NCBI GenBank assembly: GCA_022565155.1
Contig: JADFKB010000002.1
Location: 5,955-69,954, forward strand
Source of the DNA: Chloroflexota bacterium
Lineage (GTDB): Bacteria; Chloroflexota; Dehalococcoidia; DSTF01; RBG-16-68-14
Direction of reading: 5' to 3'
DNA: 64,000 bases
Made by a program: the position numbers and the translations under genes. Position 1 is the first letter of the stretch. Each line of letters begins with the position of its first letter. Positions 51,385-64,000 of this stretch are shown here, piece after piece. The notes beneath the pieces are model-generated. The model was not told the DNA's origin and made no database searches. It worked only from the letters and a program-made list of their open reading frames with translations.

Positions 51385-51481
51385 TGGGTAGGACGCCCCC
51401 TCATAGACGCCCATCCAGTATAGCGAGCCGCTTAGGCCCTGTTCAAGTAAATCATGCTATTTATGCTTTTTACCCCCGGCG

Positions 51482-51612
51482 ATGATGCGCCGCCGGACGC
51501 CTTCGAGGCCAGATTCAACGAACTTCGGTTGCCGTGTCTGCTGGCCGTAGAGCACCTCGTGGAACGGGCCGATCTGGAGGTAGCGGCTCTTACGGGCGAG
51601 CCTGAATCAGAC
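51482..51612. repeat. about 132 bp direct repeat, copy A (about 90% identical to 52612-52743)
   Basis: atgatgcgccgccggacgccttcgaggccagattcaacgaactt...gagcctgaatcagacg. Confidence 0.7.
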
Positions 51613-51743
51613 GCTAGGTATGGCCGAGCAAGCACTCGTTGTCTTAGGCCCTCATTGCTGTAGAATGAGGCCCTAAATCGAGGCACGAGAGATCGGCGGC
51701 GGGAGGGTTGGCAGGCCATATTCAATGAACAAGGAGGCACCGG

Positions 51744-52180
51744 ATGCTGCTCAGACGTCAGTCGGAGAAAATGGATGTGCTACAGAAGGTGCCGATCTTC
51801 CAGGGCCTCAGTGCACGCCACCTCAGGCTCATTGCGCGGGAAGCGGAAGAATTTCAAGGGCCGGCAGGCAAGATGCTCGCACGACAGGGGGACATGGGAA
51901 GGGAGTTCATCCTCATCCTGGATGGCAGCGCTCGTGTGGAGATTGACGGCAAGCAGATCGCTCGGTTGGGACCGGGCGACTTTTTCGGGGAGATGTCGGT
52001 CATTGACGGAAAGCTGAGGTCGGCCTCAGTGATCGCCGACACTCGGCTGGTCTACCTTGTCATTCACTGGGGGCTTTCTTGCGTCTACTTGAACGAGTGC
52101 CTGGTCTTTCGCGGAAGCTGCTGGTCGTGCTCTGTGGGCGGCTGCGCGACGCCGATGCTAGGCTCGCCGCCATGAACTGA
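51744..52180 (+). pseudogene. stand-alone cyclic-nucleotide-binding (cNMP) domain gene, apparently frameshifted near 52065-52075
   Basis: The domain reads cleanly (FQGLSARHLRLIAREAEEFQGPAGKMLARQGDMGREFILILDGSARVEIDGKQIARLGPGDFFGEMSVIDGKLRSASVIADTRLVYLVI). The expected C-terminal helix (FLRLLERVPGLSRKLLVVLCGRLRDADARL) continues in the -1 frame and ends at TGA 52178-52180. Confidence 0.5.
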
Positions 52181-52611
52181 CCGAGCCGGATAGAGGTGGG
52201 CATGTCACCTGTTCAACCGCCTGCTACCCGCCAGGGTGGTATCATGCCGGCCTGATGCGCGCACTCATCGCAGCCCTGATATTCATGCTCGCCGTCGCTG
52301 TGACCGCCAGCATCTTTGCGATGTGGCCTGTAGTTGGCGACGCCCCGTGGGAGGACGACGTGCCGATAGTCCAAGACGGGACTAACGAGCTTCGCTTACT
52401 GCTGAGGGTATGTCACCTCACAATCGCCAACGTAGTTCTCTTGCGGTGTTTGCGAACGCTGAAAAACGCGCGCGTGCTCCACTCCGACCACCGCAGCAGG
52501 AGGCGGCTGTGAGGCGGTTAGGGAGAAGCACGCCAGACGCTGCCTCGTTTCACGTTCAACGCTAGCGGCTGTCGTAATCCGCCGCGCATCTAATGCTCTT
52601 GATGTCTCCTC

Positions 52612-52743
52612 ATGATGCGCCGCCGGACGCCTTCGAGGCCAGATTCAACGAACTTCCGCTGTTGTGTCTGCTGGCCGTAGAGCACCTCGTGGAACGGGCC
52701 GATCTGGAGGTAGGCGCGGGCGTGGGTGAGCCTGATTCAGACG
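52612..52743. repeat. about 132 bp direct repeat, copy B
   Basis: See copy A. The copies are about 1.13 kb apart and flank the cNMP-binding pseudogene. Confidence 0.7.
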
Positions 52744-52933
52744 TTTAGTTCTGGCATGGGCGCGCTCTAGTCCGGCGCGTCCCCCTTTCTTATGCTGAGG
52801 GCTGGGTAGGAAAACTGCCCGGCTCTCAGCGCCTCGATAGATCGAGCGGCGTCACGACTCGGTGCGAAGCCCGCCGCTCGCCCGTTTGGTAGAATCCTGC
52901 GGATCGCACCGATGTTACACTCTCTAGAGAGGG

Positions 52934-53884
52934 TTGCTCATGCCGCTAACGAGTCAAGAAGAACGCTGTATCAATCTCGCGTGTAGCCACTTGGCAGGCG
53001 TCTATGGTGGTGCCTGGAAGGTGTCCGATGATTTGGATGAGCTGCATCAGAGCGAGGCGAGTCCGGAAGTGCGGGTTTCTAGCGGCGAGATGACGGCAGC
53101 AATCGAGGTCAAGCGGCTCGTAGGAGACGCACCGTTCATCGAATACCTCGAGAGCATGTTCTCGCTGGAGAAGTATCTCACTCCGTCTTGCGGAGGGTAC
53201 TACAGCCTGAACCCTGCCATCGACTTCCGCGTGCCGATGGAGCGCCCCTTTCGCCGTTACGTGAAGCGGGAGATTGAGCGAGTGGCGCCAACGCTTGCGC
53301 CTGAACAATCGGGCGCGATCCTAATCCGGCGTGAGGCTCATGTTTCTCTGGTCTCGGAGACCGGCCCTGGCTACATCTTCTGCTGCCACAACTCCAGTGG
53401 CCACTTCGTCATGGAGGTTTCCCCCCGATTGACCGGAAAGTTCATGCTCGTTGATGAGAGGATGTGGGAGCATTCATTCGTGACGGAAGAGGGAAAGCTT
53501 GCCTTCCAAGATGCTCTCGTGAAGGCGTGTGAGGCCAGACTGAACGGACACTTCGGGCCCTTCACTTGGAACGAGGAGTGGGAGCTGACGCGGGGAAACG
53601 AGGAAGGCGACGAGTCCGGCGTGTTTCTTATCACGGTCACGGACGCACGGAGCGTACCTGCGGCTGTCGCCGAGAATGTCGACATCATGCTCGACAAGGC
53701 GTTGGAGAAGTTCGAGGATCGGCGTTGGGCTGACCTACACGTAATTGTGCTCGACCGCGCCAGCGCACTGATGACAATCGATAGAGTCCACGACGTTCTC
53801 GCCGACGTCAGCGTGGAGAACTTCTCGTCAGTCGATCTCGTGCTCGCCACTGATGAAGATGACGTGACCCAGGTGTGGCCCTAA
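52934..53884 (+). CDS. hypothetical protein in a lower-GC islet; possible PD-(D/E)XK-type core motif (GEMTAAIEVKRL)
   Basis: Clean 316 aa ORF. Third-codon GC is visibly lower than in neighbours. There is an AIEVKR (D/E)xK-like segment after acidic residues. Confidence 0.45.
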   Translation: MLMPLTSQEERCINLACSHLAGVYGGAWKVSDDLDELHQSEASPEVRVSSGEMTAAIEVKRLVGDAPFIEYLESMFSLEKYLTPSCGGYYSLNPAIDFRVPMERPFRRYVKREIERVAPTLAPEQSGAILIRREAHVSLVSETGPGYIFCCHNSSGHFVMEVSPRLTGKFMLVDERMWEHSFVTEEGKLAFQDALVKACEARLNGHFGPFTWNEEWELTRGNEEGDESGVFLITVTDARSVPAAVAENVDIMLDKALEKFEDRRWADLHVIVLDRASALMTIDRVHDVLADVSVENFSSVDLVLATDEDDVTQVWP

Positions 53885-54050
53885 CGCAACACGAAACTAC
53901 GAGAGCACGTCTCGCCCTCGTTCTTTCTGCTACACTCCGTCGACTACAGAAGGAGGGCGCGCGGTGGACATCGTACGCGACGTTCGGTTATAGCGGCCTG
54001 CGTTGACGGCGTCGCTGGGCGGTTGCTACGTTGATTGAGAGAGTCGATCT

Positions 54051-55373: not shown

Positions 55374-56606
55374 TCAGTCAGGAGCGATCGCGAACGATTC
55401 CGGCGCAACTCTCTCGTAGGCGCCGGCTAGCTTGGCCGCGACAGCATCCCAGTTCAACTGATCCTCGATGCGTGAGCGGAGGCGCCGGCCTCGGGCGTCC
55501 CACTCGTGGCGAGCATGCAATGCTTCTAGGATTCCTTCAGCAAATGCCAACGGGCTTTCATTCTGGACGTAGTAGCCATCAGCGCCCAGCACCTCCCGAT
55601 TCCCTTCATTGTCTATGCTCACTACTGGCAGCGCCATGCTCATGTAGTTATAGAGCTTGGCATTGCCTTCAGTCTCGCTCAGCTTCGGAGCTACAGCCAG
55701 GTCGACCAACGCTAGATGATCCGGAGCCAACGCATAGTCGAGCCGGCCGGTGAATGTGATCCGCGACATGATTCGTAGTTCGTTCGCCAGCACACGTGGC
55801 TCTTCGTCCGGGTAGCCCATGATCAGGAAGTGACACTGAGGATGCGTCTGCAGCACGATCGCTGCCGCCCTGAGAAGCCGGTCGATGCCCTGTTGTTCGG
55901 TGAGCAACCCGATATAGCCGATGACGGTGGCATCGTCGTCGAGGTTGAGGCGATGCCGAAGTTCTGGGTCAGGCTGGCGGGGAGAGAACATGGCCGGATC
56001 GGCGCCGTCCATGACGCGGGAGATCCGGTTCGCATCGATCCCGAAGCGATCGGTGAGGTCGCGCTCCATCATCCGCGACTTGACGAGGATGAGCGGGGCG
56101 AGCCGGTTGATCCGCCGCTCTAGAAAGCTGATCGCCTTGAATGGGAGGGAACTTGTCTGAAAGGAGCCTTTCTCAGCCATCTCCAGCGACAGGCTTCCTT
56201 GAAGATCGAAGACCCAAGGAATGGCCAACAGGCGCGAGACTATGCCTGCGATGAGGCCACCTTCGTGGAGGTGTCCGTGCAGGAGAGCCGGACGAGTACG
56301 GCGAGCTACCAGAATCGTTTTGATAAGCAATAACACCCACAACGGAAGCCTTGCCAGCGAGGGGCCTATCTTGGAAGCCCCGTAGCCGGGGAATCGAGCG
56401 GCACGATGAATCCGCACGTCAGGTAGGTCGCGTCCGCTGGAATAGCAGACCACCTCCATCTGTATGCCTCGCCTAATGAGCGCCCGCGACTGCTCGTACA
56501 CGGCGACGCCGAAGCCCCGGTCGACGAAGAAGGGCCCCGGCGCGATCATCAGCACGGAGGGGTGTCTTGCTACAGGCTCGTCGACTACTCGATCAGTCGT
56601 TGGCAT
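55374..56606 (-). CDS. GT4 family glycosyltransferase
   Basis: GT-B fold with a C-terminal E...E motif region (SETEGNAKLYNYMSMALPVVS). Confidence 0.8.
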   Translation of the reverse strand: MPTTDRVVDEPVARHPSVLMIAPGPFFVDRGFGVAVYEQSRALIRRGIQMEVVCYSSGRDLPDVRIHRAARFPGYGASKIGPSLARLPLWVLLLIKTILVARRTRPALLHGHLHEGGLIAGIVSRLLAIPWVFDLQGSLSLEMAEKGSFQTSSLPFKAISFLERRINRLAPLILVKSRMMERDLTDRFGIDANRISRVMDGADPAMFSPRQPDPELRHRLNLDDDATVIGYIGLLTEQQGIDRLLRAAAIVLQTHPQCHFLIMGYPDEEPRVLANELRIMSRITFTGRLDYALAPDHLALVDLAVAPKLSETEGNAKLYNYMSMALPVVSIDNEGNREVLGADGYYVQNESPLAFAEGILEALHARHEWDARGRRLRSRIEDQLNWDAVAAKLAGAYERVAPESFAIAPD

Positions 56607-56678
56607 GGGCCGTTCGATGTGCTGCGGGGCAAGCGGGCGTCTCGTCGAATAGCGTCGAAGCGCGAATCCACGGGCTGC

Positions 56679-57602
56679 CTAGCGCGTGCGGCGGACGATC
56701 AGGTCGGCGATGAGCGCGATGGCGCCGATCTGGATCGCCGTCATCGTTAGCAACACCGATGATGTGGTGATGTGCAGGTCGAAGCGGATGATGTCCGTGA
56801 TTCCCTTGCCGACGCCGCCGATGAAAAAGACGAACGCTATCGGCAGCAGGACGCGCAGCGGGTCGACGTACATCACCATGCGGATCACCGTCAACGCCAT
56901 GTTGTACGTGTCTTCGATGGGGCGAAACTTGGAGCTACCGATCACGCGCGCCCGGTAGTCGATCGGGATGAAGGCGATGCGGCCGCGGTGGGAGAGCGAT
57001 GCCAGCGTCAGCGTAGTCGAGTTGGAGAAGCCGTCCGGGATCAGCGGCAGATAGCGGAACGCAGCCTCTCTGGTCAGTACGCGCATGCCGGAATTGAGAT
57101 CGCCGACGGTTTGTCCGCTCAAGAACGTCGCGAATATGCGCAGCATGCGTTTGACCGCGACGCGCAGCAGGCGCAGGCTGCCCTGTTCGCTCTGGCGGTC
57201 ACCGATCACCTGCTCGTAACCGCTCTCCGCGCTGACGGAAACGAGTTTTGGTAGATCCTCCGTCGGATAGGTGCCATCGCCGTCGATGATGACGATGTAC
57301 GCGCCCCGCGATCTTGCGATGCCGGTCTTGATCGCGGCGCCCTGGCCGAGGTTGACCGGGTGAGAGATGACCGTGGCGCCGGCGGCGCGCGCCAACTCCG
57401 CGGAGCCGTCGGTCGATCCGTCGTCGATGACGAGGATCTCCAGCGGAGCGAAGGCTGGCCCGGCCAGCGCCGCGCCGATCTTTTTCACTTCGGCGGCGAC
57501 TGTGGCTGCTTCGTTGTAGACAGGGACGATGACGGATACGGCGTGAGAGGCGTCATCCGCGGTTGCCGTAGCATCGTTCACGGCAGGTCCAGCTTCGACC
57601 AC
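56679..57602 (-). CDS. GT2 polyprenyl-phosphate sugar transferase (ArnC/DPM1-like) with C-terminal TM helices
   Basis: VSVIVPVYNE, IDDGSTDGS and DGDGTYP (DxD) motifs. Two C-terminal TM helices. Confidence 0.85.
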   Translation of the reverse strand: MVEAGPAVNDATATADDASHAVSVIVPVYNEAATVAAEVKKIGAALAGPAFAPLEILVIDDGSTDGSAELARAAGATVISHPVNLGQGAAIKTGIARSRGAYIVIIDGDGTYPTEDLPKLVSVSAESGYEQVIGDRQSEQGSLRLLRVAVKRMLRIFATFLSGQTVGDLNSGMRVLTREAAFRYLPLIPDGFSNSTTLTLASLSHRGRIAFIPIDYRARVIGSSKFRPIEDTYNMALTVIRMVMYVDPLRVLLPIAFVFFIGGVGKGITDIIRFDLHITTSSVLLTMTAIQIGAIALIADLIVRRTR

Positions 57603-57748
57603 GTGTCCGTCCTCCCGGCGGCGCTATCTAGCTGCCGCCTTCCTGTATGGGCGGTATCCGGCTGCCGCTTCCGTGCATGGTAGGGTTATCGTCGTTGCGA
57701 TGTCAACGTTGGCCGTCCGGTGCCGGCGCTAGCCGATACGTCTGAGCC

Positions 57749-58819
57749 GTGCCCTATGGTATGCTCGGCTGTGAACAGGCGCTTCGCCTGACTATTGACA
57801 TGGGGCTAAGAGCGCGCACATCCACTATCATCGCCGTTGCCAGACCCGTGATCGTCTTCGGCGCTATCGTCGCTACCTTCTCTTTCCTGGGCTGGACGCT
57901 GGTCTCAAACTGGAACGATCTCTCGTCGGAGGAGATCGATGTCCAGCCTGCGCTACTGGTCTTATCGATCTTGCCGGGCATCGCTGCTGTCGTTGTCATG
58001 GGTCTCACCTGGGCGGGCCTTATCCGCTACCTCGAGGGCCGCGATACGGCATCGGCGCAATCGTTGTTGAAGATATTCCTCTACTCCTGGGTAGGCCGTT
58101 ACGTACCGGGAAAGGTTGCGTACGTGGCGGGCAGGTTCCTTCTGGGCCGGTCGATCCGCATCTCCTCGGCCTCTTTGGCTGGCAGCATGGCGTACGAGGG
58201 TGTGCTGCAGTTAATGGCGGGGGCTGCCTTAGCGTCGGTGACGCTGGTACCAACGCTCGCTATCGAGTCGGAGAGCTTCTTGCCGTACCTAGCGCTGCCG
58301 GCGCTGGCCGTAGGCGGCGCTATCGTACTGCACCCGCGGGTGCTGGGCTGGGTGCTGCGCTTCGGCTTGCGGGTCGCCGGCCGGGAGTCGGTCGAGTTCA
58401 AGCGGCTGCTGCCGCCCAGGCAGATAGCGAAAGTCACCGGCATGTACGTTGGCGCGTTCTTGTTGAACGGCGTGGGGTTCTACTTGCTTATCATATCGCT
58501 CACGGACTACTCCCCGCGCTACCTGCCGCTGGCGGTGGGGCTCTTCGGGTTGGCTGCTGTCGTGGGGCTGGTCAGCGTCTTTGCACCGGCCGGCATCGGC
58601 GTCCGTGAGGGGATCCTCGTAGTCGTTCTGCAGACGACGATGCCGGTTGAGCTGGCGATCCTCGTCTCGCTTGTCGCGCGAGTGTGGGCAACCGTGATCG
58701 ATCTGCTCTTGATCGCAGGCTGCTTTTTCTACGACCAACTATCCGGTGAGCGGCTGCTGATCAACGCGCTGCGCGGGAGAGGAAGCGAGAACGATGCGCC
58801 CAGCGCGCTCGATCCCTAG
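57749..58819 (+). CDS. membrane protein of the lysylphosphatidylglycerol-synthase TM-region / flippase-like (UPF0104) family
   Basis: Eight or more predicted TM helices. Conserved GYVPGK and APAGIGVREG segments. Confidence 0.65.
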   Translation: MPYGMLGCEQALRLTIDMGLRARTSTIIAVARPVIVFGAIVATFSFLGWTLVSNWNDLSSEEIDVQPALLVLSILPGIAAVVVMGLTWAGLIRYLEGRDTASAQSLLKIFLYSWVGRYVPGKVAYVAGRFLLGRSIRISSASLAGSMAYEGVLQLMAGAALASVTLVPTLAIESESFLPYLALPALAVGGAIVLHPRVLGWVLRFGLRVAGRESVEFKRLLPPRQIAKVTGMYVGAFLLNGVGFYLLIISLTDYSPRYLPLAVGLFGLAAVVGLVSVFAPAGIGVREGILVVVLQTTMPVELAILVSLVARVWATVIDLLLIAGCFFYDQLSGERLLINALRGRGSENDAPSALDP

Positions 58820-59766
58820 TGCCTGGATTCACTAGTTACGAGCCAGCGCCACTGTGCCGCCACTCCGTCCGCCAGGCTGGTCTTGGGCGAAAAGCCGAGA
58901 TGTTGTTGCGCGAGGGAGTTGTCGCCCAGCGTATGAAGGGTGTCGCCTTTCGCTGCCGGCTCGTACTGAACCGCCAGCGGCTTGCCGGTGGTCTCGCCCA
59001 CCAGCTCGATCAGATCGTTGACGCTGATGCGCGAGCCGCCGCAGACGTTGAAGATACGCTCGTCCGCCGGCGCTTCGAGCGCGCGCACGTTCGCTTCAAC
59101 GACGTCGTCGACGAACGTAAAGTCGCGCGTCTGGGTCCCATCACCGAAGACGGTCACCTGTTCGCCATTCATGGAGGCGAAGAGGAAGCGCTGGATCGCC
59201 ATCTCGGGCCGTTGCCGTGGGCCGTACGCCGTGAAGTAGCGCAGCGAGACGGTCGGTACGCGGTAGACTCGGTGATAGAGCGAGCAGAGGTGCTCGGCTG
59301 CCAGCTTGGTGACGCCGTAGGGGGAGACGGGCTGCGGCAGCGTCTCCTCAGTTACAGGCAGGCGTTTGGCGTTGCCATAGATCGACGACGATGAGGCAAA
59401 CACGAACGTCCGGAGTTCCGCCCGCTTCGCCGCCTCCAGTAGCCGTTGCGTGGCTGCGATGTTGTTGCGCAAGTAGACCGCGAACTGGGAGCCCCAGCTT
59501 GGCCGTACGCCGGCCTGGCCTGCGAGGTGGAAGACGTGGTCGGCGCTGACGAGCAAGGCATCGAGATCGATATCGAGCAGGTCGCCATCGATGAGCTGGA
59601 AGCGTTCGTGTCCCTTCGCGTCCGAAAGGTTCCGCTCTTTCAGATGGCGCGCGTAGGAGTCAGTGAAGCTATCGATACCGACGACCTCGTGCCCCATAGC
59701 GAGCAGCCGGTCGGCGAGGTGCGAGCCGACGAAGCCTGCGGCGCCGGTGACGATGCTCTTCGTCAC
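58816..59766 (-). CDS. NAD-dependent nucleotide-sugar epimerase/dehydratase (UDP-glucuronate decarboxylase/4-epimerase-like SDR)
   Basis: TGAAGFVGSH Rossmann motif and YGVTK catalytic YxxxK. Confidence 0.85.
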   Translation of the reverse strand: MTKSIVTGAAGFVGSHLADRLLAMGHEVVGIDSFTDSYARHLKERNLSDAKGHERFQLIDGDLLDIDLDALLVSADHVFHLAGQAGVRPSWGSQFAVYLRNNIAATQRLLEAAKRAELRTFVFASSSSIYGNAKRLPVTEETLPQPVSPYGVTKLAAEHLCSLYHRVYRVPTVSLRYFTAYGPRQRPEMAIQRFLFASMNGEQVTVFGDGTQTRDFTFVDDVVEANVRALEAPADERIFNVCGGSRISVNDLIELVGETTGKPLAVQYEPAAKGDTLHTLGDNSLAQQHLGFSPKTSLADGVAAQWRWLVTSESRH

Positions 59767-59803
59767 GAGCCACCCTCCCGGGCGCTGCCTGTCACCAGCC
59801 TGC

Positions 59804-60595
59804 TCACGGCAGCGTGCCCAGGATGCAGTAGCGGTTCACGCCGTCCTGCAGGTCGTCGGGACATCCGCCCGGCTCTTCCGTCACCACCTCCCGCAGCGCG
59901 ATCACGACGTAGCTTGTACCGTCTGACCGGTACCAGTAGCCGTTGCGGATCGGCGTTCCGAACGGATCGACCGGCGTCGCTGCGAGGTCGCAGCCGACAT
60001 CGAGCGTTGTGTAGGCGCACAACGTCTGCACCTGGCCGCGGGTGTTCGGGTACTCGCCGTTCTGGTGAGCGTAGACGTCCAGTGCTGTCCGCACTGTCTC
60101 GAGGTCCTCGCGGCGAATCTGGTCTCGTTCGGCGGGCGTTCGCGAGTCGGTAGGCGGCACGGGATCCGCCGCCGCCACTATCCGCTCTTCGACGTCGCGG
60201 ACGATCTCCTCTTTCGACGCGCGCCGAATGGTATTAGAACCGTAATTGGCGACGTAAAGCTTCCGATCTTCGTAGATGTCCAAGATCTCGAAGTCGTCTT
60301 CATTGCCTTGGAGCTCGGCCCAGACGACATTGCCGTCGAGGCTGGGACTGTTCAGCCAGAACACGCTGCCGTAGCACCACCAGTGCGGACAGTTCTCGAC
60401 AAGGATCAGCGCGTTATCGAGATCTATCTCGTCCGCACGATCTGGCAGCCGCCGGTCGGTGAAGTTGAAGCCTTCGAGCTGAGATGCGTTCGACGGGGTA
60501 AAAGTGGTGACGCCGCTGCCGGACCACGTCTCGCGCTGGCCGAAGAGCCAGCCGTAGACGCTGAACGCGATCAGGATGGCGGCCAGCCCGTACAC
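59804..60595 (-). CDS. membrane-anchored protein with C-terminal pseudopilin (GspG/type IV pilin)-like domain
   Basis: GTG start directly into a TM helix (YGLAAILIAFSVYGWLFG). The C-terminal LETVRTALDVYAHQNGEYPNT...PVDPFGTPIRNGYWYRSDGTSYVVIA matches the pseudopilin core pattern. Confidence 0.5.
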   Translation of the reverse strand: MYGLAAILIAFSVYGWLFGQRETWSGSGVTTFTPSNASQLEGFNFTDRRLPDRADEIDLDNALILVENCPHWWCYGSVFWLNSPSLDGNVVWAELQGNEDDFEILDIYEDRKLYVANYGSNTIRRASKEEIVRDVEERIVAAADPVPPTDSRTPAERDQIRREDLETVRTALDVYAHQNGEYPNTRGQVQTLCAYTTLDVGCDLAATPVDPFGTPIRNGYWYRSDGTSYVVIALREVVTEEPGGCPDDLQDGVNRYCILGTLP

Positions 60596-62597
60596 CGCGA
60601 AGCTGACGGTGGCGGACGGCGTCGGCGTCGAATCGTTGCGGAAGCGGCGGGCCAGCCAGTCGCCCAGTGGTGGCGGCGTCTCGGATCGACTCGAACCCGC
60701 GGGCGGTGAGGAGGATCAGGAACGGCAGCGACTCGTACCAGAAGCGCGGCCCGTGCATGATCGCCGACGAACGGTAGAAGATAGGCGCGCTGACGATGGC
60801 GAGGAATGAGGCGCCCAGGAAGTAGTCCCACTTGTTCTTCGTTCCTAACAAAAATGGGAGCGCAGCCACGATCAAGCCGATCGCCACGGGCCAGCCGTTA
60901 GCCACGAGAAGCAGCAGCGAGAGCAACTCCTGCTGGTTCTGAATGCCGGCTGTGACGGAGTGGGTGCCGCTGAACCCAACGAAGTCCTCATTAAACGTGC
61001 CTTGTATCTCGTAGGCCGTGGTGTTGAAGTCGCCGGTTGTCATCTGGTTATAGAGGAAGTATGAGCCCAGCAGCAGCAGCGCGCCGGCGGAGAAGGCGAG
61101 GTCTTCGCGTAGGAGGGCCAGACGGTTGGGTCCTGCGCGAAGCAGTTCGTATGCCATGAAGACGCCGAGCACGGGCATGAACGCCACCGCCGTAAACGGC
61201 CGGATGTTGAACAGCAGCCCGATGAAGACGCCGGCGACGAACATTGCGATGATTCGTCGCTTCGTCTGCAAGGTCAACAGAAAGAGGGCTGCGAGGATAG
61301 TGAAGACTGCCGTATTATGTGACATAAAGTTACTGGCGGTCATCAGGAAGAACGGCGAGGAGAGAAGCAGCACGGCTGCAAGCAGGCCCGTAGAGGCGTT
61401 GTAGAGGCGCTTGCCGATGGCGTAAATGAGGGCGACACAGGCCGCCCCCAGGACGGGCGGCACGAGCCAGATTGCGCCAAAGAGCTGTCCGACAGCGAGG
61501 AACAGCGGATGGCCAAAGGGGTAGTGGCTGAACCAACGGCCGTCCACAACTTGGAACATATGCGGATTGAAGATGGAGAAGCTCTCGCGCAAGGGGGGCG
61601 CATCTGCAGTGAGCCGGAACGAGGCGAAGATCTTCGCCTGGAACGTATAGCCGACCGAGTCCGGCACATGCGGAACCGCCTCGCCGACGACGTAGAGCAG
61701 ATACCAGAGCAGTACGAGCGATCCGGCCGCGAGGCCGAAAGCGATGGCCGGCGCGGCCTCCGTGACCAGTCCGGCGGCAGCCCGCAGCCGTCGCTCGAGC
61801 CAGGCGAGCCGGAGCACGAAGGCCAGGCTGATCGCGCCGGCGATCGCGAACAGCGCGTAGGGATACGGCCGCAGCATCATGGCGGTGATCGATTGGATCG
61901 TCTGGCCACGGTCGAGGTTGAGGCGGGCCTGCTCGACGCGTTCTCCGGGCACCGACGATCCGTCTTCAATGCGCGCAAGGACGGCGCCGCCGAGCCCTCG
62001 AAACGGCCGGATGGTGAGGAGGACAGCGTTGTTCAGGTCTTGTAATCGGACGTAGATCGTCGCCTCGGTCGCGTTCCGTATCTTGGCTTCCAGGACGATG
62101 TTCCCCCAGTCCTGCGGGCCTGTCGAGATCGAACCCGTGCCCTCCGTACCAAAGGTGCCGTCATCTACCGACCACGCGCCCCCAGCATCTTGCCAGAGTG
62201 CTGACGGCGAGCCGTTGAAGTCGTCCTCGAAGAGTACGGTGTCCGTGCCGAACTCGGTCACCCGGACGGAGTCGAACCCGAACGGCTTCGGCAACCCAGG
62301 CAGCCGATAGTCGTTTGAGAGCCGCAAGCCGATGCCGCCTTGCGTGGGGCCCTGGAACGTTCCTTCGGCGACCAGCTCGCCGTCAACGAACGCGCGGTAC
62401 TGGGAGCCGTTCGCTTCGATTCGGATGTCTGTCGTCGCGCCGCCACGGCTCCAGAAGTAGAGCGCGATCAGCGCGAGATTGACGACGATGATCAGCCAGA
62501 CAGTAGTGGAGCGCCACGAGCGCGCGGGCAGCAGGCTGGCGATGTTCGAGAATAACGATAGGCGGCTGGCAGCGGTCGCAGGCTCCGGAATTTGCAT
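60414..62597 (-). CDS. GT-C fold glycosyltransferase (PMT/ArnT-like, GT39/GT83-type) with N-terminal extracytoplasmic beta-rich domain; 3' end uncertain
   Basis: One N-terminal TM, about 200 aa extracellular domain, then about 13 TM helices with a PMT_2-like layout. The last about 90 codons are Arg-rich, overlap the next gene by 180 bp and are probably a non-coding read-through. Confidence 0.65.
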   Translation of the reverse strand: MQIPEPATAASRLSLFSNIASLLPARSWRSTTVWLIIVVNLALIALYFWSRGGATTDIRIEANGSQYRAFVDGELVAEGTFQGPTQGGIGLRLSNDYRLPGLPKPFGFDSVRVTEFGTDTVLFEDDFNGSPSALWQDAGGAWSVDDGTFGTEGTGSISTGPQDWGNIVLEAKIRNATEATIYVRLQDLNNAVLLTIRPFRGLGGAVLARIEDGSSVPGERVEQARLNLDRGQTIQSITAMMLRPYPYALFAIAGAISLAFVLRLAWLERRLRAAAGLVTEAAPAIAFGLAAGSLVLLWYLLYVVGEAVPHVPDSVGYTFQAKIFASFRLTADAPPLRESFSIFNPHMFQVVDGRWFSHYPFGHPLFLAVGQLFGAIWLVPPVLGAACVALIYAIGKRLYNASTGLLAAVLLLSSPFFLMTASNFMSHNTAVFTILAALFLLTLQTKRRIIAMFVAGVFIGLLFNIRPFTAVAFMPVLGVFMAYELLRAGPNRLALLREDLAFSAGALLLLGSYFLYNQMTTGDFNTTAYEIQGTFNEDFVGFSGTHSVTAGIQNQQELLSLLLLVANGWPVAIGLIVAALPFLLGTKNKWDYFLGASFLAIVSAPIFYRSSAIMHGPRFWYESLPFLILLTARGFESIRDAATTGRLAGPPLPQRFDADAVRHRQLRGVRAGRHPDRVQRLRLALRPARDVVRQRRHHFYPVERISARRLQLHRPAAARSCGRDRSR

Positions 62598-62608
62598 ACG
62601 GGAGGTAC

Positions 62609-63922
62609 TCAGTCGCCCCTGCGGGCGCGGCCAACGCCGATGTACGAAAAGCCCGCCTTCACTACCTGCGCGGGGTCGAAGAGGTTGCGCCCGTCGATGA
62701 AGAGCCGTGACTCCATGCCGCGGCCGAGCCGATTCAGGTCCAGCTCCAGGAACTGGCTGTGGTCCGTGGCGATGACGATGGCGTGGCAGCCTTCGGCCGC
62801 GCTGTAGGCGTCCGTGTGGAGTTCTGCCTTGCCATCGATAGAGGCCGCTGCAGTGCTATCGGCTAACGGATCGAACGCATGGACGCGCGCACCCGCGTTC
62901 GCAAGTAGACGGATGATCGCCAGCGCGGGAGAGCTGCGCGGGTCGAACGTGCCGCCCTTAAAGCTGATGCCGAGAACGGCCACGGATCGGCCGGCGAGAT
63001 CCGGCAGCACCTCCTGTAATCGTTCGATGACCCAGCGCGGTTGCAGTTCATTCACTTCGGCGATGGCGCGCAGGAGGTGCGGTGTGTAGCCGCCGTTTTG
63101 CGCCGTATTGATGAGAGCAGTCAGGTCCTTAGGGAGGCAACTGCCGCCGAAACCAACGCCCGGCTGGAGATAGGCCTCTCTACCGATGCGCCTATCGAAC
63201 GCGAGCGTTTCCGTGATCTGCGACATATCGGCGCCTGTCCGTTCGCAGATGTTCGCGATCTCGTTGATGAAGCTCACGCTCGCGGCCAAGTACGCGTTGG
63301 CGGCGTACTTCGCTAACTCCGCTGTCGCTAGGTCGGTCAGGACGATCGGGCAGTCGATCTTCGCGTACAACGCCGCGACAGCCTGCGCCGCCTGTTCCGT
63401 GCCGGCGCCGATGACGATGCGGTCCGGTCGCATGAAATCGTCAACGGCGTGGCCTTCGCGCAGGAACTCCGGATTGGACACGATCTCGAACGCGGCGTCG
63501 AGGCGTTTCGCTTGGAGACGCCGAAGAACTTCCGCGTTGGTACCGACTGGCACGGTGCTGCGGATGATGACGATAGCATTGGCGTCCAACTGGGGCGTCA
63601 ACGCATCGGCTGCGGCATAGAGCGCTGAGAGGTCGGACGTGCCGTCGGCGGCAGCTGGAGTAGGCAAGCAGAGCAAAACAGCTTCTGCGTCCGGGACGGC
63701 CAGCGAAACGTCTGTCGTAAACGAAAGGCGGCCAGCCTCCAGGTTGCGCGAAATGACGGCGTCAAGCTGCGGTTCAACGAACGGAGCCGCTCCGCTTTGA
63801 AGCTGGGCTACGCGCTCTTCATCGACGTCGACCGCGCAGACCGTGTGACCGAGGTCTGCCAGGCAGGCCGCCGTGACCGCGCCCGAGCGCCCCGCGCCGA
63901 TTACGGCGAGCGTTGCGCTCAC
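62609..63922 (-). CDS. ugd: UDP-glucose 6-dehydrogenase
   Basis: VIGAGRSG Rossmann motif and catalytic GFGGSCLPKD. Confidence 0.9.
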   Translation of the reverse strand: MSATLAVIGAGRSGAVTAACLADLGHTVCAVDVDEERVAQLQSGAAPFVEPQLDAVISRNLEAGRLSFTTDVSLAVPDAEAVLLCLPTPAAADGTSDLSALYAAADALTPQLDANAIVIIRSTVPVGTNAEVLRRLQAKRLDAAFEIVSNPEFLREGHAVDDFMRPDRIVIGAGTEQAAQAVAALYAKIDCPIVLTDLATAELAKYAANAYLAASVSFINEIANICERTGADMSQITETLAFDRRIGREAYLQPGVGFGGSCLPKDLTALINTAQNGGYTPHLLRAIAEVNELQPRWVIERLQEVLPDLAGRSVAVLGISFKGGTFDPRSSPALAIIRLLANAGARVHAFDPLADSTAAASIDGKAELHTDAYSAAEGCHAIVIATDHSQFLELDLNRLGRGMESRLFIDGRNLFDPAQVVKAGFSYIGVGRARRGD

Positions 63923-64000
63923 GCTGTCACTCCATAGCCGCTCGATAGTGCTGTCTGATTCATAACACGCTGGAAGCTGAGTATGATTGCTCGATCCATG

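Follow-up and report, generated by a model that had tools for sequence, protein, structure and literature searches.

Positions 55374-63922 of a 64,000-nucleotide stretch of the 80-kb Chloroflexota contig JADFKB010000002.1 (the whole stretch is referred to here as the window) carry a predicted envelope-glycosylation cluster. It encodes a UDP-glucose 6-dehydrogenase (Ugd), a large glycosyltransferase of the GT-C type, a short-chain dehydrogenase/reductase (SDR), a membrane protein resembling the MprF flippase domain, and glycosyltransferases of families GT2 and GT4. The seven open reading frames (ORFs) of a preliminary description of this DNA were all recovered at the same coordinates, and Pfam and NCBIfam searches gave the family assignments reported below. 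The locus contains six genes rather than seven, once the two halves of the GT-C are joined; what made it look odd, the overlap and the pseudopilin-like feature, comes from a gene that is broken in this draft assembly. We estimate a probability of about 0.75 that the locus is a conserved core-genome cluster for envelope glycosylation, in which a single GT-C of ~930 amino acids (aa), split by an indel, acts in a polyprenyl pathway of the galacturonic acid (GalA) type.

The preliminary description had noted that the GT-C ORF runs into the next ORF as an arginine-rich tail, and offered two explanations: a real overlap, with the downstream gene starting at a GTG directly on its transmembrane (TM) helix, or a frameshift near 60690. 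Both the overlap, which measures 182 nt, and the tail were confirmed. Arginine makes up 27.7% of the last 83 residues versus 5.6% elsewhere in the GT-C ORF. Three-frame translation of the minus strand shows that coding sense shifts to the +1 frame just upstream of this tail. The +1 frame reads ...ESIRDAATT then GDWLARRFRNDSTPTPSATVSFAVYGLAAIL..., runs through the proposed GTG start and agrees with relatives; the 24 codons ahead of the GTG are conserved as protein sequence in this frame. The GTG itself, at 60595, sits within the TM helix, and no Shine-Dalgarno sequence precedes it.

Related proteins have the same single-chain organization. We searched the repaired 930-aa reading against 5.8 billion proteins and counted as relatives the best 120 matches listed. 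The reading is 95% identical to the 931-aa protein P0001 at 100% coverage, and many other relatives align at 96-100% coverage. Most consist of one 780-1000-aa chain and come from metagenome-assembled genomes (MAGs) of Chloroflexota and Dehalococcoidia, the fullest name among them being “glycosyltransferase family 39 protein”. A module census found the core and the C-terminal domain in a single chain in 116 of the 120, the remaining four being truncated; none is split at the junction seen in the window, and no relative has a counterpart of the Arg-rich tail. We also scanned the 263-aa downstream ORF with HMMER against 1.84 billion representatives, where its full-length matches are the C-termini of proteins of 800-950 aa. 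Three short proteins that match it full-length were checked and all begin with leucine, which suggests that they are contig-edge fragments, and other short matches cover the C2 domain alone. In the Chloroflexota MAG OFTM331 (locus L002, JAJCYW010000012), gene order is the same and the orthologous GT-C is encoded by an unbroken ORF of 929 aa.

Since the coding sense continues in the +1 frame, the relatives are unsplit and an indel can be located at the DNA level, the frameshift explanation is correct and overlapping genes are rejected; the actual site is 60663-60670. The segment 59804-60595 is thus best read as the part of the GT-C that comprises its final TM helix and C-terminal domains, and not as a separate gene, which removes the anchored pseudopilin-like substrate or adaptor proposed earlier. 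That two real genes overlap here, the first encoding a 727-aa GT-C whose Arg-rich tail is cytoplasmic and the second a pseudopilin-like membrane-anchored protein initiated from GTG 60595, is hardly credible given the conserved codons ahead of the GTG and the unsplit relatives, even though both ORFs are open, GenBank lists a GT39 protein and a ‘GspG’ separately, and stand-alone proteins of ~200 aa with a TM anchor, Pro/Thr linker and C2 domain occur elsewhere. Programmed frameshifting was also considered and rejected: the site has no slippery sequence and close relatives use a single frame.

Table 1. Predicted genes, domains and other features of the glycosylation locus. Coordinates are positions in the window.
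Feature	Coordinates	Strand	Remarks
GT4 glycosyltransferase (GT-B, retaining), cytoplasmic	55374..56606	-	Four GT4/GT1 Pfam domains
GT2 polyprenyl-phosphate glycosyltransferase, C-terminal TM helices	56679..57602	-	Glycos_transf_2 97 bits
MprF-flippase-domain-like membrane protein (PF03706 / UPF0104 / ‘PplT’)	57749..58819	+	
UDP-glucuronate 4-epimerase (SDR, 316 aa)	58816..59766	-	Epimerase 211 bits
GT-C glycosyltransferase, one gene, frameshift-interrupted	59804..62597	-	Repaired product about 930 aa
263-aa ORF (“anchored pseudopilin-like”)	59804-60595	-	T2SSG E 6.7e-4, 20.1 bits vs cutoff 21
C2 pilin/pseudopilin-fold domain	59807..60145	-	Four conserved Cys
C1 alpha/beta extracytoplasmic domain after last TM helix	60161..60529	-	CxxWWCYG motif
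Annotated 727-aa GT-C ORF	60414-62597	-	PMT_2 46.5 bits; weak N-terminal 3keto-disac_hyd match
Out-of-frame Arg-rich tail of 727-aa ORF, not real coding sequence	60414..60662	-	83 aa, 23 Arg
GT-C-A transmembrane catalytic core	60530..61892	-	PMT_2 46.5 bits; invariant HVPD motif in first extracytoplasmic loop
Frameshift site	60663..60670	-	Extra G in minus-strand GGG 60663-60665 and in-frame 3-nt deletion between 60670 and 60669
N-terminal extracytoplasmic beta-sandwich (concanavalin/DUF1080-like)	61893..62450	-	Between extra TM helix and TM hairpin, before GT-C core
UDP-glucose 6-dehydrogenase (Ugd), UDP-GlcA producer	62609..63922	-	UDPG_MGDP_dh N, central and C domains (Pfam)

The indel was defined by comparison with two contigs from other assemblies, L001, at 94.8% identity, and L011, at about 98.7% if its gaps are disregarded. 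The 3-nt deletion is located four bases upstream of the extra G, and the net change is -2 (+1 G, -3 nt). In the blastn alignment the window reads CAC---CACTGGGCG, and L001 and L011 both read CACGAGCACT-GGCG; over a wider span, the window reads GCCGCCAC---CACTGGGCGAC and the two contigs GCCGCCACGAGCACT-GGCGAC. The window alone deviates at 60663-70, where both contigs are intact, and outside the indel no other stop or indel separates the region from intact relatives. Another conserved gene, 8.6 kb away, is broken as well. This gene, for a cyclic nucleotide monophosphate (cNMP)-binding protein (51744-52175, plus strand), is interrupted at a G5 run (52069-52073), and its intact reading (…LVYLVIHWGAFLRLLERVP…) needs one base more than the window's G5. 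The repaired product is 96% identical to 145-aa relatives at 100% coverage, and the annotated 143-aa product covers only 72%.

The intact site in near-identical contigs from other assemblies and the break at a G run in a second conserved gene favor an error of assembly or sequencing as the probable cause of the split, over a real inactivating mutation. A genuine frameshift is the less likely explanation, though one to be taken seriously; it would make the GT-C a recent pseudogene in this strain, or leave a truncated enzyme that lacks its final TM helix and the domains beyond it. In its favor, the change is a complex one (-3 and +1) outside any long homopolymer, MAGs can capture real strain variants, and the adjoining 3-nt indel could be a natural polymorphism. 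Set against this are the intact site in L011 and L001, the intactness of the surrounding region and of the rest of the cluster, and the second break, which points to an error-prone consensus. Some apparent gene breaks proved to have other causes. L011 was rejected as an independent second split, since its 186-aa gene call stems from a 10-N scaffold gap and its indel site is intact. Both L001 (~1290, in Ugd) and L011 (1309-1318, in the GT-C) are ENA scaffolds with short N-gaps that create spurious gene breaks. The overlapping same-strand ORF pairs 17314/18011 and 34119/35189 of the window were likewise dismissed as further frameshifts, being merely upstream ORF extensions.

To describe the architecture of the enzyme, an AlphaFold2 model was built on P0001 with 70 homologs (pLDDT 87.8, pTM 0.82). 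An extra N-terminal extracytoplasmic domain had been proposed for the GT-C, and the model confirms it as a beta-sandwich: a TM helix (28-50) is followed by strands at 55-223 (about 170 residues, pLDDT about 90), and a TM hairpin then restores the in-to-out topology ahead of the core. In P0001 this domain scores 26.5 bits against Pfam 3keto-disac_hyd (DUF1080), just below the cutoff of 26.8, and Foldseek matches it to the jelly-roll glucanase 1AJO (E 6e-4). The jelly-roll domain is present in every non-truncated relative among those listed (117 in all). Beyond the core, the model continues with a final TM helix (662-685), the alpha/beta domain C1, a short linker and the helix-plus-sheet domain C2. 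C1 occurs in 119 of the 120 relatives. The N-terminal jelly-roll and the two C-terminal domains probably bind the acceptor, which is most likely a glycan or glycolipid.

The core has the features of a GT-C-A fold, namely multiple TM helices, a conserved acidic residue in the first loop, and structural likeness to ArnT, STT3 and PMT enzymes. The PMT_2 signature is found in 50/50 family members, and P309 and D313 of the motif P-H-V-P-D are invariant in 70 sequences. Foldseek ranks ArnT (5F15, E 8.6e-8, probability 1.0) first, then AglB, STT3, PglB, ALG9/12 and Pmt4, all at 11-15% identity; Emb/Aft enzymes are also among the fold matches in this identity range. No curated NCBIfam family of GT-Cs of known function scores above its cutoff, the best being LA_3751/LA_3752 (50.6 bits, cutoff 200) and archaeo_STT3 (25 bits, cutoff 450). 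The locus defines an uncharacterized family of GT-C enzymes, seen only in Chloroflexota, whose accessory domains are unusual.

The C2 domain is an accessory module of this family: it is present in 76 of the 120 relatives and is the sole missing module in 41. The preliminary description had likened the C-terminus to the GspG pseudopilin, a similarity to be given up if structure prediction did not support it. The similarity survives, as C2 is predicted to have the pilin-type globular fold of a long helix packed on an antiparallel sheet. A profile of the family matches the sequences of GspG crystal structures (E 0.002), and a Foldseek search with C2 was negative. Membership of the GspG family is not supported by TIGR01710 (16.2 bits, cutoff 88.85) or PF08334 (20.1 bits, cutoff 21), and C2, which follows a linker within the 930-aa protein, contains no prepilin leader or hydrophobic N-terminal helix. 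C2 may be an undescribed domain family. It also occurs outside the GT-C (P0187, P0188, P0192, P0193, P0205, P0207, P0214, P0142), in one case as six tandem copies in a 755-aa protein. The stand-alone C2 proteins (~200 aa) are anchored by a TM helix at the N terminus, carry an extended linker rich in Pro and Thr, and contain no prepilin motif. It is conceivable, though improbable, that C2 is an unrecognized, disulfide-stabilized, non-filament version of the pseudopilin fold in Chloroflexota that docks homotypically with these stand-alone proteins, whose linkers the GT-C would O-glycosylate with GalA. If true, homotypic docking of C2 would be a new mode of enzyme-substrate recognition in bacterial protein glycosylation.

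Ugd scores 440.6 bits against TIGR03026 (cutoff 189.8) and 425 bits against the TuaD model, and is 67% identical to the syntenic gene in OFTM331. The SDR had been described as an epimerase/decarboxylase, and only the first of these assignments holds. Its best match in the PDB is the UDP-glucuronic acid (UDP-GlcA) epimerase UGAepi of B. cereus (6ZL6/6ZLA; 274 bits, about 50% identity), followed by MoeE5 (221 bits); UDP-GlcA decarboxylases (UXS) reach about 120 bits and the ArnA-type model NF008872 41.5 bits. When aligned to 6ZL6, the residues S/T126, S127, S128, Y149, K153, T178 and R185 are all conserved; they cover the S/T-Y-K triad of SDR enzymes and the Ser/Thr and Arg positions that bind the carboxylate. 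Arg185 holds the GalA carboxylate in UDP-GlcA 4-epimerase (PMC12338863). The SDR is thus predicted to be a UDP-glucuronate 4-epimerase, converting UDP-GlcA to UDP-GalA, and not a decarboxylase. Because Ugd lies two genes upstream of this epimerase, the locus would most simply supply UDP-GalA rather than 4-amino-arabinose (Ara4N) or xylose.

The GT2 scores 139 bits against the AglJ model, 91 against PpgS and 75 against ArnC, all under the equivalog cutoffs. Its best PDB matches are ArnC (79 bits, residues 21-270 aligned), then DPMS and GtrB, and a C-terminal hydrophobic segment is legible in the translation. These properties are those of a putative polyprenyl-phosphate glycosyltransferase of the DPM1/ArnC/GtrB/AglJ type. 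The GT4 appears generic: in the PDB it comes closest to MshA, GlgM and PimB' (37-47 bits), and it weakly matches the GlcNAc-PG synthase model NF053787 (63 bits). The protein encoded at 57749-58819, whose true start is likely the ATG at 57761, has no direct Pfam match, even at an E-value of 1 or less. It is 65% identical over 351 aa to its ortholog in OFTM331, which scores 43.8 bits against LPG_synthase_TM (PF03706, cutoff 33.4); through this ortholog we infer that it belongs to the MprF/PplT family. These assignments uphold the overall logic of the preliminary description, in which nucleotide-sugar supply, a GT2 polyprenyl-phosphate enzyme, a flippase-like protein and a GT-C act together.

Conservation of the locus was checked in related genomes, as had been suggested. 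Gene order is identical in OFTM331 (GT-C 71% identical), which carries Ugd, an intact GT-C, the epimerase, the PF03706 protein on the opposite strand, the GT2 and the GT4, followed by cysteine desulfurase, helix-turn-helix (HTH) and IscA neighbors as in the window. A scan of genome contigs returned one locus, from the same MAG. Each of the five examined contexts places the GT-C next to a PF03706 or orthologous protein and a GT2 and/or GT4, and the identity of the PplT protein follows that of the GT-C (65%, 55%, 53%). In more distant relatives, a methyltransferase is usually also found near the pair. In L004, where the GT-C is 52% identical, other SDRs stand in place of Ugd and the epimerase, and the GT2 is non-orthologous; the constant core is therefore GT-C plus PplT, with the donor-sugar genes as an exchangeable cassette. 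The housekeeping genes on the flanks of the window place the locus in the core genome.

Other features of these neighborhoods were also recorded. Non-orthologous sugar-supply genes and a GT2 lie by the GT-C/PplT pair in L004 (2704-7792), L005 (4924-6507) and L009 (10819-12477), with two other SDRs and no Ugd, and the same distant loci have a second, shorter PMT_2 GT-C paralog (527-552 aa) beside the large one. Within the window, the segment at ~51450-54000 contains, besides the cNMP gene, ORFs of 85 aa and 316 aa (the latter at 52934-53884, TTG start, no Pfam match). It separates the cysteine desulfurase from an ArsR-type HTH gene, which are neighbors in L002, L004 and L005. GC content is lower over 52-54 kb (0.596), and the segment is possibly a strain-specific insertion.

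On the basis of these assignments, a pathway can be proposed. Ugd and the epimerase, whose families are clear, would convert UDP-Glc to UDP-GlcA and then UDP-GalA. At the cytoplasmic face, the GT2 would load the sugar, most likely GalA, onto polyprenyl phosphate, and the MprF/PplT-type protein would translocate either the polyprenyl-phosphate-sugar or a glycolipid made by the GT4. The ~930-aa GT-C, with its GT-C-A fold and invariant loop-1 Asp, would then pass the sugar to an extracytoplasmic acceptor engaged by its lectin-like and pilin-fold domains. Some observations weigh against this interpretation. The sequence of the GT2 does not reveal its donor specificity; L004 indicates that GalA is clade-specific and tied to the GT-C by adjacency alone; and the change from G2 to G3, coupled to the loss of three nucleotides, departs from the classic homopolymer error, so that a real mutation at the split is a possibility.

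As acceptor, we tentatively favor a glycolipid, lipoglycan or wall glycan over a protein; lipid A modification is unlikely. Alternatively, the GT-C may be a PMT-like protein O-glycosyltransferase that modifies Ser/Thr-rich linkers in proteins of the envelope, possibly those of stand-alone C2 proteins, and uses its pilin-fold domain as a docking module. The PMT_2 signature in 50/50 family members is consistent with this activity, as are the presence of Pmt4 and Pmt1/2 among the fold matches and the long Pro/Thr-rich linkers of C2 proteins in related metagenomes. We nonetheless regard it as unlikely: ArnT and the oligosaccharyltransferases outscore the PMTs in Foldseek, 41 of the 120 relatives have no C2 at all, the window and the fetched loci contain no C2 gene except the GT-C itself, and the jelly-roll domain, being lectin-like, points to a glycan as acceptor. 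An Arn-type system for modification of lipid A with Ara4N or a similar cationic sugar is scarcely tenable despite the presence of Ugd, an SDR, an ArnC-like GT2 and an ArnT-like GT-C and the rank of ArnC and ArnT as nearest solved structures, given an epimerase with the carboxylate-holding Arg185, a score of 75 bits against the ArnC equivalog NF007986 (cutoff 529), and a cluster with no formyltransferase, DegT-type aminotransferase, deformylase or ArnE/F.

The practical value of the analysis is corrective, as two public product names in this locus look wrong and one gene is listed as two. In GenBank, what appears to be one GT-C gene is divided into two products: MCH8064350.1, of 727 aa and assigned to the GT39 family, and MCH8064349.1, of 186 aa (59804-60364, minus strand) and named “type II secretion system protein GspG”. 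MCH8064348.1 (58816-59766, minus strand) is labelled GDP-mannose 4,6-dehydratase, and its best match is UDP-glucuronate 4-epimerase. No established concept is overturned by the locus. With its constant pairing of GT-C and MprF/PplT and its interchangeable donor genes, it is a tractable entry to the poorly known envelope glycoconjugates of Chloroflexota, and also to the question of what PplT proteins translocate.

Three-component glycosylation through polyprenyl-phosphate-sugars is already well known, and the locus can be compared with several systems. It resembles the ArnC/ArnT pathway in having Ugd upstream, a GT2 that would make a polyprenyl-phosphate-sugar and a GT-C that would transfer it outside the membrane. 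The Arn-like logic of the preliminary description stands to this extent; its Ara4N component does not. The 316-aa SDR is a 4-epimerase without a formyltransferase domain and differs in this from the ArnA-type oxidative decarboxylase, and Pfam and NCBIfam searches detected no ArnB, ArnD or ArnE/F domains among the cluster genes; the only neighbor with an aminotransferase fold is the class-V cysteine desulfurase, which lies in a conserved Fe-S gene group. In addition, the GT-C shares 13-15% identity with ArnT and has three extra extracytoplasmic domains, and the flippase candidate is of PplT type where that of Arn is of SMR type.

The type II secretion system (T2SS) major pseudopilin GspG/EpsG is comparable only at the level of the C2 domain, which differs from it in being covalently part of a 930-aa enzyme, in its four conserved Cys and in the lack of T2SS genes nearby. 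A parallel in gene content is the uncharacterized archaeal neighborhood of an AglD-like GT2, a UPF0104 (MprF-flippase-like) protein and a PMT/STT3-like GT-C, for which a role in glycosylation was predicted (Makarova et al. 2015, PMC5898192). Both neighborhoods are conserved and combine a GT2, a PF03706 protein and a GT-C. In the archaeal triad, the GT-C belongs to a different family (arCOG00563), AglD frequently joins its GT2 to a UPF0104 domain, and there is no GT4, Ugd/epimerase or accessory domain.

The pairing of a glycosyltransferase with an MprF/PplT-like protein recalls HexSDF of C. difficile (PMC10128005) and GpgSDF of P. aeruginosa (PMC12713373), in which a cytoplasmic glycosyltransferase and a putative flippase of this type bring a glycolipid to the outer leaflet; the GlcNAc-PG synthase model weakly matched by the GT4 fits this comparison. 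A preprint also reports PplT domains fused to GT-B domains in Chloroflexi. The two systems differ from the present locus in having no GT-C or polyprenyl-phosphate GT2, and their deacetylase is absent from the window. In L002 (7178-8542) and L005 (909-2712), the region upstream of Ugd has two conserved genes, one of the YdjC family (deacetylase-like) and one for a GNAT acetyltransferase. The counterpart region lies above position 64000, past the end of the window, and a deacetylase there would strengthen the parallel.

The mycobacterial enzymes EmbA/B/C, AftA and AftD differ from the GT-C in the types and positions of their domains, share 11-15% identity with it and come from another phylum. 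These enzymes, which depend on polyprenyl-phosphate-sugars, have in common with it a GT-C core and, outside the membrane, beta-sandwich or accessory domains that presumably hold a glycan acceptor. With respect to predicted chemistry, and compared in pathway logic only, the locus matches the Rgt system of Rhizobium/Mesorhizobium, for which no PplT, jelly-roll or pilin-fold domains are known. There, RgtE synthesizes bactoprenyl-phosphate-GalA and the GT-C GalA transferases RgtA-D/F act on the LPS core and lipid A (PMC7663294). The conversion of UDP-Glc through UDP-GlcA and UDP-GalA to polyprenyl-phosphate-GalA, followed by GT-C transfer, would be shared by both, so that Rgt appears to match the chemistry of this locus more closely than does ArnC/ArnT.

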